64,000 nucleotides of DNA from assembly GCF_041886205.1 (NCBI RefSeq), contig NZ_CP169029.1, one strand, 5' to 3'. The notes beneath the pieces are model-generated. The model was not told the DNA's origin, searched no databases, and saw only the letters and a list, made by a program, of their open reading frames with translations. This stretch comes from Escherichia coli. Its GTDB lineage: Bacteria > Pseudomonadota > Gammaproteobacteria > Enterobacterales > Enterobacteriaceae. The stretch's first letter is position 1. Each line of letters opens with the position of its first letter. This document shows positions 1 through 39,755 of the stretch, piece by piece. The position numbers and the translations under genes are program-made.

Positions 1-191
1 AAATGCAATGGAAAAGATGATATAGAGAGTGAAATAATCCAGATTATTACTATTGTTCATGCTACTAATGGCAATCCTGTCAAAACTTTCAAACAATTAT
101 AGCAAACAAAATAATGAACAATAGTAACAAGAGGCAACGAGCTAATTAGCTGTCTATAATTACACCGCACTATGGCCTTACTGATCGATTT

Positions 192-1715
192 TCACTCAAC
201 CACAACCTTCACCTTCGGTTTAGAAAGGATAATTTTGACCAGGTCGATGTATGTAACAGGTTTATAGAAATAATAACCCTGCTGAAATGTGATATTATTT
301 TGGTTCAGATAGTCAAGTTGTTCTTTCGTTTCGACACCTTCAGCGACGATACTGATCGAAAGTTTACGCGCCAGATCCAATACACAATCCAGAATTCGGG
401 TTGATTCTGGGTCTGCGTTTACGCGGCCAACGAAACTGTGATCAATTTTGATATAATCAATATGCAGGTCATGAAGATAAGAAAGCCCTGAGTAGCCAGT
501 ACCGAAATCATCCAGCGCGATGACAAAACCATTTTCATGCAGAATGTTCAACCGCTGAACCAGACTTTCATCAACATTCAATGGCTCACGCTCGGTGACT
601 TCCAGAACAAGGTTTAAATCGCGGCGGGTAAAACTGTCACGGAAATTTAAACACTCGTCGACAAACGTCGGCGAAATAATATGCGAAGCGCTAAAATTAA
701 TTCCAATATGAAAACCTTCCGGCAGTTTACTCGCGATAGCGTTCATCTGTCTGGCAACCTGATTCATCAGGCTTTGTGTAAGCGGAACGATTAATCCGGA
801 TTTTTCAGCAAGTGGAATAAATGCCGCGGGTGAAATATATCCACCGTGAGGTTGTTTCCAGCGGGCTAACACCTCAACTCCCCGCAATGTCCCTTCCCGA
901 CCATTTACCACAGGTTGGTAAAAAGGGACGATCTCCCCATTATTTATTGCCCGTCGCAGGATCTCTTCAGGCGTTGCGCTTTTATTGAAATACCTATCAA
1001 GCAGGAAAGCAGCGGCGCAGGCGATTAACAGAATAAATATCAAAATCCCAAAGCCTTTATCGATAAGTCTGTAGAAGCTAAAGAGTGGCGGCGGGTTAAA
1101 GATAATAGTGAAATGATATTTTGTGGAGTGAACCTTCTCGGTATAGGGATAATGTCCATTAAGTGTCATCACATCACCCGTAGGCCCAATAATGTCATCC
1201 GCCACGCGTAATACATACCTTACCCCTTTCAAGGGTACATTAAGCGCCCCACGAATATGCTGATCGCTTATCGTAACCAAAATGCGCGTATCTGCAAATT
1301 GGTTCTGATAGAGCAGGATAGGTAATCTATTAACGGTGTCGATTGCTGGAGCCAACAGTAAATTACTGTCCGGGACAACAGGAATACGAGACAACAGGAC
1401 CCGATTCCCAGGCAGGGATGTACACCAGACTATTCCCTGTTTGAGAATGATGATTGTGCGCAGGTGAGGTTTCAGAGCTGCTTCAGTGCCAAGCTGATAT
1501 TGCTCCTCGAGGTCGCATTCCTTCCCGGCAATGTTAACCGCTGTTTGAGTCGCCTGTGACGCTTCTTCAAGTATATGATTGATATTGTTGGCGGCATATC
1601 TCGCTCCCGACAGGTACTCTGCTTTTGCGGAATACCAGAGCTGGATGTTCAAAATAGCGACACCGGTTATAAATAAGCATATCGCAACGAGGATGGGTAT
1701 GAGTGTATTGCGCAT
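192..1715 (-). CDS. pdeG: CSS-motif EAL-domain c-di-GMP phosphodiesterase PdeG (YcgG); start taken at internal Met giving 507 aa
   Basis: 521-aa ORF on the track; N-terminal TM segment plus C-terminal EAL-like domain; synteny next to ymgC as in K-12. Confidence 0.8.
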   Translation of the reverse strand: MRNTLIPILVAICLFITGVAILNIQLWYSAKAEYLSGARYAANNINHILEEASQATQTAVNIAGKECDLEEQYQLGTEAALKPHLRTIIILKQGIVWCTSLPGNRVLLSRIPVVPDSNLLLAPAIDTVNRLPILLYQNQFADTRILVTISDQHIRGALNVPLKGVRYVLRVADDIIGPTGDVMTLNGHYPYTEKVHSTKYHFTIIFNPPPLFSFYRLIDKGFGILIFILLIACAAAFLLDRYFNKSATPEEILRRAINNGEIVPFYQPVVNGREGTLRGVEVLARWKQPHGGYISPAAFIPLAEKSGLIVPLTQSLMNQVARQMNAIASKLPEGFHIGINFSASHIISPTFVDECLNFRDSFTRRDLNLVLEVTEREPLNVDESLVQRLNILHENGFVIALDDFGTGYSGLSYLHDLHIDYIKIDHSFVGRVNADPESTRILDCVLDLARKLSISIVAEGVETKEQLDYLNQNNITFQQGYYFYKPVTYIDLVKIILSKPKVKVVVE

Positions 1716-1898
1716 TTGCTTGTCCCGGCCAAAGGGTTTAATACATGAAAATGCCATTCATTCGCTCGCGCTGGCATCTACAGAGAGCATGGTAGAGAGC
1801 ATAGGAAATATCCACGCCGAAGATAAAATTTTCTCCATCTTGATCTAACCCATTAATTATTGAGCATAATGTAGGCAGGATTAAATAAATTAGGTGGG

Positions 1899-1952
1899 AT
1901 ATCAGGCATCAAGAATGGAGAGCGAGAACTCTCCATTCTTGACACCTGATAT
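1899..1952. repeat. Long imperfect inverted repeat (about 25-bp arms; perfect 13-bp inner stem CAAGAATGGAGAG / CTCTCCATTCTTG around a 6-nt loop)
   Basis: Read directly from sequence; lies between ymgC stop and pdeG start. Confidence 0.7.
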
Positions 1953-2046
1953 TGCGGACATAATAAGAAAGCATAACGCCTGAAATGCTCACTTTGCATC
2001 AGCATGGTGATACAGCTGATGTTTATTCTAAAACCTTACTCAAGTT

Positions 2047-2295
2047 CTAAGAGAGCACGGATTCCCTGTCATTAATAATGATATCCGTTAGTGTAGTCTT
2101 ATGCATTTCAATGTACTGCAATATTTGCAGATAGAGATCAGAAAGAATCACACTGGTTTCATCTTTTAAACGCAAGCGTAAAGCCTGATCAATAATATGA
2201 CTATCAACATACCCATGCGTCATGAACACCTCCCTCTCGAGATTTTTAAACAAAGCACATTGAAAAATAAATCTCTCTGGGATTGAATTATTCAT
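2047..2295 (-). CDS. ymgC: YmgC, last gene of ycgZ-ymgA-ariR-ymgC operon
   Basis: 82-aa ORF; operon synteny. Confidence 0.75.
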   Translation of the reverse strand: MNNSIPERFIFQCALFKNLEREVFMTHGYVDSHIIDQALRLRLKDETSVILSDLYLQILQYIEMHKTTLTDIIINDRESVLS

Positions 2296-2407
2296 GTCAG
2301 CCTCGTAGAAATATTAACCCAATAAAATTATGCTGTGTATAGTCTAAAGCGACAGACAAAAATAAGATGAATGAGTTTTCTATAAACTTATACTTAATAA
2401 TTAGAAG

Positions 2408-2674
2408 TTACATATCATCAGCTGTGTATCGCAACACGATTTCCAGTGTTTTTCTAATCACATCAGCTTTGAGAATATCACTTGTTGTTTCCAGGGAGTG
2501 TATCAGACTTAAGATAATATTTTTATTATTAACATTATCGCCTGAAAGCATTAAATTGGTGACAGCCTGCCCTAACACAGCTGACTCTTCTTCTAACAAA
2601 TTACCCGAACTGCGAAAGTAACTTGCTAACGCTTTATCAGTTATTGCATTATGAATTGTAGTATCTTCAAGCAT
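2408..2674 (-). CDS. ariR: AriR (YmgB) biofilm/acid-resistance regulator
   Basis: 88-aa ORF; recognised sequence and synteny. Confidence 0.8.
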
Positions 2675-2702
2675 GGTAACCTCTCATCTTACTTATGAAA
2701 TT

Positions 2703-2975
2703 TTAATGTATTCTGTTTATTTTCTTACCATTGAACATACTTTTATTGTCAGCTGTCGCTGTTCTTCGGTTTAGCCCTCCTGAATCACTATTGCTAAAAT
2801 CACGAATTATGCTGTCGATTAAATCGCGTCGGAAAGCATCTTCCTCAGCCGATTTCATTACGAGTAATTGCTTAATAAGAGTCTGCAATGAAAAATTTAT
2901 CTTCATGCGCAGTATCTGGAGCACCGCCTGGCCAGTAATTTCATATTTTATACGTTCATTATCAGATGTCTTCAT
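2703..2975 (-). CDS. ymgA: YmgA, RcsB-connector family
   Basis: 90-aa ORF; synteny. Confidence 0.75.
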   Translation of the reverse strand: MKTSDNERIKYEITGQAVLQILRMKINFSLQTLIKQLLVMKSAEEDAFRRDLIDSIIRDFSNSDSGGLNRRTATADNKSMFNGKKINRIH

Positions 2976-3017
2976 AACGACTTCATAGCTAACCTGTTAA
3001 ATAATCAGGCTGTTGCA

Positions 3018-3248
3018 TTATTCAAAAAGCAACCCAATTAGTGCATTATAATGTTTCTGTTCCCCTGTCGCTTGTTCCAGTCGGCATAGAAGTTTGGCAC
3101 AAAGCGACTTTCGACTCAGATTACGTCCATCTTTCAAAATCTCAGTCACAATTTCCCCGAGAGTTTCCTGCTGAGTAGGCAAGTTAGCTTTTGCAAAGTA
3201 ACGAGTGATTGCTCCCGCAGAATCTAAAGTCACTGAATTTTGATGCAT
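3018..3248 (-). CDS. ycgZ: YcgZ, first gene of BluR-repressed operon
   Basis: 76-aa ORF beginning MHQNSVTLDSAGAITRYF; divergent from bluF. Confidence 0.8.
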   Translation of the reverse strand: MHQNSVTLDSAGAITRYFAKANLPTQQETLGEIVTEILKDGRNLSRKSLCAKLLCRLEQATGEQKHYNALIGLLFE

Positions 3249-3302
3249 GCTACGCCTCTGTTAAAAATGTTAATCAATGTTAAGTGAGGTAACAATAGCA
3301 AA

Positions 3303-3324
3303 CTTGTACGAAATATGTGTACAG
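3303..3324. promoter_or_regulatory. Candidate operator in ycgZ promoter region (TTGTAC-N9-GTACA partial palindrome)
   Basis: Seen in sequence about 55-75 bp upstream of ycgZ start; related to the TTGTACAA palindromes upstream of bluR. Confidence 0.3.
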
Positions 3325-3874
3325 AATGATAAATTAATTTTTTGCATTTAGTGCTAATACATACAAAACAACAAGTTATGATAAAAATTATTGCATCATT
3401 TAAATGACAACCTATACAAAAATTTTCGCCAACTCATCTTTAACTTTTTCCATTTTTTATCAATGTAAAGAAACAGTTATGTTTTGGTATTAAAAGAAAG
3501 ACACCGGAAGATATGTCTGTTACCGTCTTACTCTCACCTCTCCCATTACCCTGGACAGTTAATGCTTACCACCCTTATTTATCGTAGCCATATACGTGAC
3601 GACGAACCTGTCAAAAAAATCGAAGAAATGGTTTCGATAGCAAATCGCAGGAACATGCAGTGTGACGTAACAGGGATCTTACTGTTTAATGGTTCTCATT
3701 TTTTCCAGCTTCTGGAAGGTCCGGAAGAACAGGTTAAAATGATATATCGGGCTATATGTCAGGATCCACGGCACTATAATATTGTTGAACTGCTGTGCGA
3801 TTACGCGCCTGCTCGCCGTTTTGGCAAAGCGGGAATGGAATTATTTGATTTGCGCTTGCACGAGCGAGATGACG

Positions 3875-3883
3875 TTTTACAGG
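3875..3883. repeat. Left copy of 9-bp target-site duplication TTTTACAGG
   Basis: Identical 9-mer immediately flanks both IS ends. Confidence 0.9.
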
Positions 3884-4940
3884 GGCTTTGTTGAATAAAT
3901 CGAACTTTTGCTGAGTTGAAGGATCAGATCACGTATCTTCCCGACAACGCAGACCGTTCCGTGGCAAAGCAAAAGTTCAAAATCACCAACTGGCCCACCT
4001 ACAATAAAGCCCTCATCAACCGTGGCTCCATAACTTTCTGGCTGGATGATGAAGCTATTCAGGCCTGGTATGAGTCAGCAACACCTTCTTCACGAGGCAG
4101 ACCTCAGCGCTATTCTGACCTTGCCATCACGACTGTGCTGGTCATTAAACGCGTATTCAGGCTGACCCTGCGCGCTGCGCAGGGCTTTATTGATTCCATT
4201 TTTTCTCTGATGAACGTTCCGCTACGCTGCCCGGATTACAGCTGTGTCAGCAGGCGGGCAAAGTCGGTTAATGTCAGTTTCAAAACGCCCACCCGGGGTG
4301 AAATCGCACACCTGGTAATTGATTCCACCGGGCTGAAGGTCTTCGGTGAAGGCGAGTGGAAAGTCAAAAAGCATGGCCAGGAACGCCGCCGTATCTGGCG
4401 TAAGCTGCATCTCGCCGTTGACAGTAAAACACATGAAATCATCTGCGCTGACCTGTCGCTGAACAACGTTACGGACTCAGAGGCCTTCCCCGGGTTAATC
4501 CGGCAAACCCACCGGAAAATCAGGTCAGCCGCCGCCGATGGCGCTTACGATACCCGGCTATGTCACGATGAACTGCGGCGTAAGAAAATCAGCGCGCTTA
4601 TCCCTCCCCGAAAAGGTGCGGGTTACTGGCCCGGTGAATATGCAGACCGTAACCGTGCAGTGGCTAATCAGCGAATGACCGGGAGTAATGCGCGGTGGAA
4701 ATGGACAACAGATTACAACCGTCGCTCGATAGCGGAAACGGCGATGTACCGGGTAAAACAGCTGTTCGGGGGTTCACTGACGCTGCGTGACTACGATGGT
4801 CAGGTTGCAGAGGCTATGGCCCTGGTACGAGCGCTGAACAAAATGACGAAAGCAGGTATGCCTGAAAGCGTGCGTATTGCCTGAAAACACAACCCGCTAC
4901 GGGGGAGACTTACCCGAAATCTGATTTATTCAACAAAGCC
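3884..4940 (+). mobile_element. IS903-group insertion sequence (IS5 family), 1057 bp, 18-bp terminal inverted repeats GGCTTTGTTGAATAAATC
   Basis: Terminal IRs read at 3884-3901 and 4923-4940 (reverse complement); single transposase ORF; 9-bp TSD. Confidence 0.9.
3961..4884 (+). CDS. IS903-type DDE transposase (307 aa from GTG start; track ORF starts at upstream ATG 3916)
   Basis: Protein VAKQKFKITNWPTYNKALINRGS... recognised as IS903/IS102-like transposase. Confidence 0.85.
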   Translation: MAKQKFKITNWPTYNKALINRGSITFWLDDEAIQAWYESATPSSRGRPQRYSDLAITTVLVIKRVFRLTLRAAQGFIDSIFSLMNVPLRCPDYSCVSRRAKSVNVSFKTPTRGEIAHLVIDSTGLKVFGEGEWKVKKHGQERRRIWRKLHLAVDSKTHEIICADLSLNNVTDSEAFPGLIRQTHRKIRSAAADGAYDTRLCHDELRRKKISALIPPRKGAGYWPGEYADRNRAVANQRMTGSNARWKWTTDYNRRSIAETAMYRVKQLFGGSLTLRDYDGQVAEAMALVRALNKMTKAGMPESVRIA

Positions 4941-4949
4941 TTTTACAGG
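4941..4949. repeat. Right copy of 9-bp target-site duplication TTTTACAGG
   Basis: Seen in sequence. Confidence 0.9.
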
Positions 4950-5961
4950 CCGTATTCGACAAAGGCACATCAAAATTTCAGCTAACTTATGATGACAGAG
5001 CGCTACAATTTTTTCGTACTTTTGTCCTTGCAACCGAACAATCAACCTATTTCGAGATCCCTGCCGAAGATTCCTGGCTTTTTATCGCTGACGGATCTGA
5101 TAAAGAACTTGATTTCTATACCCTTTCACCAAATATAAACGACCGCTTTGCCTTTCATCCAATTGTCGATCCCTTATCGCGGCGGATAATCGCTTTTGAA
5201 GCCATTGTGCAAAAAAATGAAGATAGCCCATCAGCTATAGCGGTTGGGCAGCGTAAAGACGGGGAAATCTACAAAGCGGATCTCAAAAGTAAGGCGCTTG
5301 CATTCGCGATGGCACACGCACTTGAGCTCGGTGATAAAATGATTTCAATCAATCTATTACCTATGACCCTGGTTAACGAACCTGACGCAGTCTCTTTTTT
5401 ACTTAATGAAATAAAGGCCAATGCTCTGGTGCCTGAACAAATCATCGTTGAATTTACTGAAAGTGAAGTCATATCTCGGTTTGATGAGTTTGCCGAAGCG
5501 ATTAAATCGCTAAAGGCTGCTGGTATCAGTGTAGCAATTGATCATTTTGGCGCAGGTTTTGCTGGTTTGTTACTCCTGTCACGCTTCCAGCCTGACAGAA
5601 TTAAAATCAGTCAGGAATTGATTACCAATGTTCATAAAAGTGGGCCACGGCAGGCAATTATTCAGGCGATCATAAAATGCTGTACATCACTTGAAATTCA
5701 AGTCAGTGCTATGGGCGTGGCAACACCAGAAGAGTGGATGTGGCTTGAATCCGCAGGAATTGAGATGTTTCAGGGGGATCTGTTTGCTAAAGCTAAATTG
5801 AATGGTATCCCTTCCATAGCGTGGCCGGAGAAAAAATAATTTTCAGCACATTCTTTCACATGATTTCAGTAAATCATCGTGAAAATGAATACGTTATGTT
5901 TAAATTTAATCCACATTAAAAATAATGTTTCATCCAAATTAGCTGAAATCTTATTTATACT

Positions 5962-5989
5962 TTGTACAATTTTAGCGTATATTGTACAA
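5962..5989. promoter_or_regulatory. Two copies of the self-complementary octamer TTGTACAA spaced 20 bp start-to-start, upstream of bluR
   Basis: Read directly; 55-80 bp upstream of bluR start; position typical of an operator within a promoter. Confidence 0.35.
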
Positions 5990-6043
5990 AGTATTATTGG
6001 GTCGTGTACAGGCGACGGAGATTTATGACCGCAAGGAGGAATT

Positions 6044-39484: not shown

Positions 39485-39755
39485 CGTGACCCCCTTAAAT
39501 TTATTAACCAATTGTTAATTAATGGTTATTAACATAGCTCTTAATTAACAACAGGTTACAGCAATGAAAATGTTCTTCGCTATTGAGAATAACATGAATG
39601 GTGCATTGGTCATACCAAAATTGATGTTAATCAAGTTTTGTTGCTGAAAAGATAGGCGACTTTACCGGGTGAGATCAAAAAACAGAGTTTATTGTTTATT
39701 ATTTGAGCGAATTTGTGAGAGTGATATAGAGTGAGGGGTGTATGCAGGGCGTTCG

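Follow-up and report, generated by a model that had tools for sequence, protein, structure and literature searches.

In E. coli, Rho-dependent transcripts have steady-state 3′ ends immediately after stable stem-loops that lack U-rich tails, are followed by an enrichment of C over G and protect the RNA against PNPase and RNase II (Dar & Sorek 2018). Intrinsic terminators likewise place a hairpin on the sense strand after an operon, with a U-tract of 7-8 nt adjoining the stem. REP/BIME and ERIC sequences are extragenic palindromes that form multi-copy families with a consensus, are transcribed at operon ends and are able to stabilise the mRNA upstream. The lambda sib element is an RNase III hairpin substrate in a 3′ region and mediates retroregulation of int. 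In sib and in the substrates described by Altuvia et al. (2018), a continuous intramolecular duplex of more than about 22 bp lies 3′ of the regulated genes, and cleavage would expose the upstream mRNA to 3′ exonucleases.

Here we analyse a large palindrome in a 64,000-nt stretch of the E. coli chromosome (hereafter the window), where it lies within the 331-nt spacer between ymgC and pdeG. We propose, with a probability of roughly 40%, that the palindrome works at the RNA level, as a stem-loop of high stability within the 3′ untranslated region (UTR) of the ycgZ-ymgA-ariR-ymgC mRNA, forming the 3′ end of that mRNA and parting it from pdeG. The genes and elements concerned are listed below in window coordinates.

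3248-3018, minus strand: ycgZ
2975-2703, minus strand: ymgA
2674-2408, minus strand: ariR
2047-2295, minus strand: ymgC, the last gene of the ycgZ-ymgA-ariR-ymgC operon, with its stop at 2047
1965-1998, minus strand: a block of 34 nt, GCAAAGTGAGCATTTCAGGCGTTATGCTTTCTTA, close to the hairpin on its 5′ side, in which a 6-bp stem-loop is possible (GAGCAU/AUGCUU)
1899-1952, minus strand (sense RNA): the hairpin, AUAUCAGGUGUCAAGAAUGGAGAG-UUCUCG-CUCUCCAUUCUUGAUGCCUGAUAU, which pairs without interruption over 25 bp, two of the pairs being G·U, and closes with a 4-nt apical loop
1929-1952, minus strand: the 5′ arm of the RNA, with the class B changes (described below) in its middle part, GGUGUCAA
1899-1922, minus strand: the 3′ arm of the RNA, which holds all C-to-T wobble-type polymorphisms and a -35-like hexamer, TTGATG (1912-1907)
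1861-1898, minus strand: a C-rich, G-poor tract directly 3′ of the hairpin, a candidate Rho-loading patch
192-1715, minus strand: pdeG (ycgG), encoding an EAL-domain phosphodiesterase, with its annotated ATG at 1715

The hairpin follows the ymgC stop by 94 nt and precedes the annotated pdeG ATG by 183 nt (141 nt if an alternative, longer pdeG open reading frame starting at 1757 is used), in agreement with an earlier note on this DNA that had placed it between the two genes. Northern data indicate that ycgZ-ymgABC is one polycistronic mRNA (Tschowri et al.), and ymgC, ycgG and ymgF are described in the literature as E. coli-specific additions to a conserved bluR-bluF-ycgZ-ymgAB unit. A 50-codon open reading frame crosses the hairpin (1853-2005, minus strand), but we do not consider it a gene, as class B alleles throw it out of frame with their 4-nt indel and no family matches it.

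The palindrome is real and far beyond chance. A repeat finder and a core search confirmed the inverted repeat of about 54 bp with a perfect 13-bp core that the earlier note had described. Its arms (1899-1922 and 1929-1952) are 24 nt each and 92% complementary around a 6-nt loop as delimited by the repeat finder, and the core, CAAGAATGGAGAG, matches both strands (1910-1922 and 1929-1941). No inverted repeat in the window ranks higher than the palindrome; random sequence would contain about 6e-6 repeats of this kind per 64 kb and about 5e-4 per 5 Mb. The hairpin is the most stable 60-nt local fold on either strand of the 64 kb (-40.5 kcal/mol, against a mean of -12.8 and a standard deviation of 4.8), with the 25-bp stem yielding -40.5 kcal/mol for 58 nt, and a 131-nt RNA fold scores z = -9.9 (minus strand) and -7.8 (plus strand), a stability that none of 200 shuffles reached. 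At the two mismatches of the DNA, sense RNA (minus strand) has G·U pairs and antisense RNA (plus strand) has A·C oppositions. Because the sense-strand mismatches are G·U, the RNA stem has 25 continuous pairs and a 4-nt loop. The 34-nt block at 1965-1998 partly repeats the 5′ arm of the hairpin (ATTTCAGGCGTTAT versus ATATCAGGTGTCAA) and carried no change across seven variants recovered in E. coli genome searches.

The earlier note had called for a search for other copies in the genome, and our searches of E. coli genomes, plasmids, phages and a species set returned a single locus. Of 5,426 complete E. coli genomes, 4,951 contain the 73-nt hairpin region, in each case at the ymgC-pdeG locus and without annotation. 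Each genome holds one copy, an apparent second place being the same palindrome read on the opposite strand, and the hairpin core has no second copy elsewhere in the 64-kb window. Genomes with the hairpin (4,948) set against those with the wider region at an identity of at least 80% (4,801) give no hint of a spacer lacking the hairpin. A phage search with the hairpin returned no match, and the only plasmid matches were non-mobilizable E. coli records, three of them of 4.8-4.9 Mb, which we take to be chromosomal sequence filed as plasmids. A core pattern with 24 specified bases, fitting all seven variants then known, had no match in 100,044 species with one genome each. A YmgC peptide search of the same species-representative genomes gave 71 pattern matches, none of them confirmed; as to the absence of the locus from these representatives, the E. 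coli representative may lack the segment, or the confirmation step may be at fault. An Rfam scan of window positions 1-6000 found no match at the hairpin up to E = 1. Integron attC, REP/RAYT, IHF and sigma-54 motifs were considered and dismissed by eye.

The single copy, single locus and lack of sequence relatives rule out a repeated or mobile family. This separates the ymgC-pdeG hairpin from REP/BIME and ERIC sequences, which it resembles as an extragenic palindrome at an operon end; theirs are multi-copy families with a consensus, whereas this hairpin is unique. The earlier note had also raised a degenerate miniature mobile-element end. A remnant of that kind, or a pair of abutted terminal inverted repeats, is suggested only by the shape, a 6-nt spacer flanked by inverted arms of 24 nt. 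Against it, about 4,950 E. coli genomes carry one copy at one fixed locus, the genome counts suggest that no spacer-bearing genome is without the hairpin, the phage and 100,044-species searches were empty, the plasmid matches look chromosomal, and there is no convincing target-site duplication. We therefore regard a mobile remnant as highly improbable and do not retain that suggestion.

The position and strand of the hairpin instead point to the end of the ycgZ-ymgABC mRNA. Like an intrinsic terminator, the palindrome gives a sense-strand hairpin after the operon. Unlike one, it has no 7-8-nt U-tract adjoining its stem: the tail CCCACCUAAUUUAUUU begins with CCCACC. The stem, moreover, has a G+C content of only 43% and exceeds the usual length more than twofold. 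The note had described the minus-strand tail as U-rich and non-contiguous, which is correct; the sequence after the stem, CCCACCUAAUUUAUUUAAUCC, is U-rich and interrupted. A terminator scan of positions 1500-3600 on both strands, requiring at least five T in 8 nt within 0-2 nt of a stem, found no terminator-like site. Since the U-tract is lacking and the scan found no site, the hairpin does not belong to the canonical intrinsic terminators, and the operon is without one.

The closest match is the class of 3′ ends described by Dar & Sorek (2018). As in that class, a stable stem-loop past the last gene, without U-rich sequence at the stem, is followed by an enrichment of C over G. The 40-nt window from 1900 to 1861 contains 12 C and 2 G, the highest C/G ratio of the 900 nt scanned, in a C-over-G patch that is only about 40-50 nt long. 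The hairpin is also the only strong structure between 1500 and 3600. It differs from the class in the exceptional length of its 25-bp stem, at about -40 kcal/mol, and in that a role for Rho, trimming and a barrier to PNPase and RNase II are here proposals.

Anatomy, strand asymmetry, single-copy status and allele structure are observations; the mechanistic steps that follow are inferred. RNA polymerase would pass the hairpin and be released shortly downstream, mainly by Rho, which would load on the untranslated C-rich, G-poor tract that begins right after the stem. The 3′-to-5′ exonucleases PNPase and RNase II would next shorten the transcript as far as the stem base, and the stem would fix the steady-state 3′ end, shield the operon mRNA and limit read-through into H-NS-silenced pdeG.

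We found no direct transcript evidence for this proposal in the published 3′-end data covered. The accessible part of the Term-seq data of Adams et al. (2021) lists no 3′ end between 1,203,751 and 1,218,619 and has no ymgC entry; under the standard 37 °C conditions used the operon was perhaps poorly expressed, and for that reason the missing 3′ end is uninformative. The TERMITe and SMRT-Cappable-seq supplements contain no 3′ end at the hairpin. Of the three readings offered in the earlier note, an atypical terminator or attenuator for the operon is the best supported: in its favour are the G·U pairing confined to the sense strand, the location 94 nt after the last gene of the operon and the C-rich, G-poor tail, but the hairpin has no U-tract and no Term-seq 3′ end in that accessible part of Adams et al. 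(2021). A further point against the 3′-end reading is that a 25-bp stem is much longer than a 3′-end cap needs. Separately, RNA chimeras between RprA and ymgC have been reported in TRIC-seq and RIL-seq.

We compared hairpin alleles in 9 complete-genome loci and 80 metagenome loci, the latter retrieved by a flank pattern lying outside the hairpin, of which 88 were usable (89 sequences including the window). The 89 sequences contain 17 hairpin haplotypes in two classes, some of the metagenome haplotypes being possibly assembly chimeras. Class A, the form of K-12 and of the window, has the continuous 25-bp stem (-40 to -45 kcal/mol) and is matched by about 3,200 genomes at an identity of at least 95%. 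Class B, matched by about 1,700 genomes at 80-90% identity and found in about a third of genomes, differs from class A in both arms: the 5′ arm has two T-to-G changes and an insertion of 4 nt, and the 3′ arm has two or three C-to-T changes. Its fold (-26 to -29 kcal/mol) has a base of 8 bp separated by an internal loop from a 14-bp top that includes three G·U pairs.

Across these alleles pairing is kept mainly in the sense RNA. The 8-bp base and the 14-bp top are paired in every allele, six pair positions alternate between Watson-Crick and G·U, and one stem pair is seen as U-A, U·G and C-G, the C-G form occurring in 71 complete-genome records at an identity of at least 99%. For most substitutions, it is only in the sense RNA that the pair survives. 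Of 12 haplotypes folded, 10 have a sense hairpin of greater stability than the antisense one (for example -26.4 versus -14.5 and -40.3 versus -31.1 kcal/mol), and in the other 2 the strands lie within 0.1 kcal/mol of each other. A rough count of substitution events gives 8 pair-preserving and 4 disruptive. A simple neutral model assigns this a p of about 0.02, which would be less telling if C-to-T changes were favoured on the sense (leading, non-template) strand; the excess of C-to-T changes on that strand could be mutational and not selected.

Other aspects of the variation count against the 3′-end reading. The alignment contains no double-sided change relative to the commonest pair, its covariation does not rise above the shuffle controls, and alifold assigns covariation a term of only -0.44 kcal/mol. 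The hairpin and the next 60 nt form the regional peak of diversity (pi of 0.09-0.155, versus 0.02-0.05 elsewhere). Class B alleles, moreover, have mismatches and the 4-nt insertion in the stem.

Rearrangements also occur at the locus. In strain A29 (locus L007, 1543-1573) an IS3 element lies inside the palindrome: homology stops at window position 1932, near its centre, and the segment from ymgC into bluF is absent. The 5′ end of pdeG is lost through two recurrent deletions (window 1086-1756 or 986-1871; loci L004 and L009 and 18 metagenome loci), the second ending 27 nt from the hairpin. Such pdeG 5′ deletions occur in 20 of 40 class B loci and in 0 of 37 class A loci.

Taken at face value, much of this variation would suit a functionless palindrome, for example a by-product of template-switch correction of a quasi-palindrome, or of the junction at which ymgC, pdeG and ymgF were acquired, now drifting. 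The hairpin sits at the local diversity peak, about a third of genomes carry a clearly imperfect form, and significant covariation is absent. The differences between the classes cluster in one arm as two substitutions and the 4-nt indel, as template switching yields, and three complete genomes differ from class B by that 5′-arm cluster alone; both this A/B hybrid and the C-G pair form are thus confirmed in complete genomes. The reported E. coli-specific status of ymgC, ycgG and ymgF fits an acquisition junction, and the IS3 insertion in A29 and the deletion ending 27 nt away mark the palindrome as a site of rearrangement. What speaks for function is that base and top stay paired in all haplotypes, that the changes are mostly wobble-compatible in the sense RNA only, and that an operon-end location with a C-rich tail fits a functional class. 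We consider neutral drift possible, though doubtful.

A different role, at the level of DNA, is raised by the 3′ arm. Genomic SELEX with RpoD holoenzyme placed a constitutive-promoter site in the ymgC>ycgG spacer, together with H-NS, and the promoter predicted there is TTGACG-19-TATTTT (Shimada et al. 2014). The K-12 3′ arm contains TTGACG followed after exactly 19 nt by TATTTT, so the arm would supply the -35 element of a predicted pdeG promoter and the palindrome may be an operator or architectural site in an H-NS-bound region. ChIP reports H-NS binding at the pdeG promoter region, and in one gene-level RNA data set (the p19 study) ycgG counts exceed ymgC counts in every column, which hints that pdeG has a promoter of its own. 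The hexamers, however, are a sequence prediction inside a low-resolution SELEX peak. Their 19-nt spacing is suboptimal, lying outside 16-18 nt, and our promoter scan returned no site here.

The predicted elements also vary between alleles. The pair reads TTGACG-19-TATTTT in K-12, TTGATG-19-TATTTA in this window and TTGACG-19-TGTTTA in class B, and the -35-like hexamer is TTGACA in some strains. In the window the predicted -10, TATTTA, is weak and lies at 1887-1882, inside the C-rich tract, as does the spacer of the predicted promoter; in class B, TGTTTA loses the key A at position 2, so that the -10 is lost in about a third of E. coli genomes. Neither a workable spacing nor allele-conserved hexamers, as would be expected of a sigma-70 promoter, were found, and the predicted pdeG promoter is allele-specific. 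A palindrome of 54 bp is, in addition, far larger than usual operators, contains no known factor motif that we recognised, and on this account would leave the strand asymmetry of its mismatches unexplained. The idea in the earlier note of a regulator binding site for pdeG thus gains a SELEX site for sigma-70 holoenzyme and H-NS with a -35 in the 3′ arm, but is left with a weak -10 and no identified transcription-factor motif. A DNA-level role for pdeG may coexist with an RNA role and explains the anatomy less well; as the main explanation of the palindrome we judge it unlikely.

Downstream, inside pdeG, the accessible part of the data of Adams et al. (2021) lists antisense 3′ ends at 1,218,619 and 1,218,676 (Term-seq table) and at 1,218,730 (second table). 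With the K-12 coordinate x mapped to the window as 1,219,043 - x, these lie at about 313-424 on the plus strand, near the 3′ part of pdeG, and these listed ends indicate antisense transcription inside the H-NS-bound gene.

The length of the stem also brings the hairpin close to known RNase III substrates. RNase III accommodates about 22 bp of double-stranded RNA; class A offers 25 continuous pairs and class B only 8 + 14 bp. Like sib and the substrates of Altuvia et al. (2018), the class A hairpin is a continuous intramolecular duplex of more than about 22 bp lying 3′ of the genes it might regulate; unlike them, it occurs alongside an allele, class B, in which the duplex is broken. The class A duplex would be long enough for an RNase III cut that turns a protective cap into an entry point for decay, and the interrupted class B stem would be less exposed to such cleavage. 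A published hint of cleavage is weak and off-centre: Table S1 of Gordon et al. (2017) lists a weak candidate between ymgC and ycgG at 1,217,246, where the rnc mutant gave 41 reads and the wild type 0 and 1. This coordinate corresponds to window position 1797, 102 nt downstream of the stem, and the reads are few. It falls within a tandem direct repeat, AGAGAGCATGG/AGAGAGCATAG (CCATGCTCTCT in sense), at 1782-1804 in the interval between the hairpin and pdeG.

Extended in this direction, the hairpin would be an RNase III-dependent retroregulator of the ycgZ-ymgA-ariR-ymgC biofilm and acid-resistance operon, as sib is of int, a proposal that we consider improbable. Were it correct, the two alleles would give lineage-specific mRNA stability and pdeG insulation, with a continuous 25-bp duplex in K-12-like strains and an interrupted 8 + 14 bp stem in B2-like strains, to which the observed pdeG 5′ deletions are confined.

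The hairpin could also belong to the following gene. If transcription came from upstream of it, through read-through or from a separate promoter, it would lie in the 5′ UTR of pdeG and act there as an attenuator or RNase III processing site. A -10-like TAGAAT occurs just past the ymgC stop and is kept in most haplotypes, and both the duplex length and the weak RNase III-dependent signal in the spacer suit processing. TAGAAT, however, has no good -35 and marks a putative start only, and no antiterminator structure is able to compete with the 25-bp stem; the pairing we considered, which joins the 3′ arm to the upstream invariant block over 10 bp in K-12, is far weaker and was rejected. The common pdeG 5′ deletions, furthermore, leave the hairpin in place, so that it persists without its supposed target. 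We give a leader role for pdeG little credence.

If the hairpin does set the 3′ end of the ycgZ-ymgABC mRNA, it would mark the boundary between two units related to c-di-GMP and biofilms, the BluR/BluF-controlled small-protein operon and the H-NS-silenced phosphodiesterase gene pdeG, and would be an unusually long example of the class of 3′ stem-loops without a U-tract. Between them, the two allele classes amount to a natural test of what stem continuity does to termination, to protection from exonucleases and to sensitivity to RNase III. In other respects the hairpin is a local detail of one E. coli locus and the general picture is unchanged; it is a previously unannotated element of an ordinary kind, with an unusually long stem.

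Several further features were observed in the window. The bluF gene (3484-5100) is interrupted after about 130 codons by an IS5-family element, whose transposase open reading frame spans 3916-4884 (NF033579, E = 6e-107); in strain 6EVA, the closest genome over the ymgC-pdeG spacer, bluF is intact. About 50 nt upstream of the bluR GTG (6045) lies a perfect 14-nt inverted repeat, ATACTTTGTACAAT-N10-ATTGTACAAAGTAT, at 5957-5994. Its TGTACA motifs are like those of reported BluR/MlrA sites, and on that resemblance it may be an operator of the bluR promoter. A second palindrome, at 39505-39558, has 25-nt arms that are 80% complementary, and a local fold of -40 kcal/mol occurs near 57925 on the minus strand. 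At 59607-59638 the inverted repeat GGCCTGATGCGGCGT/ACGCCTTATCAGGCC is present, which we take to be REP-like.
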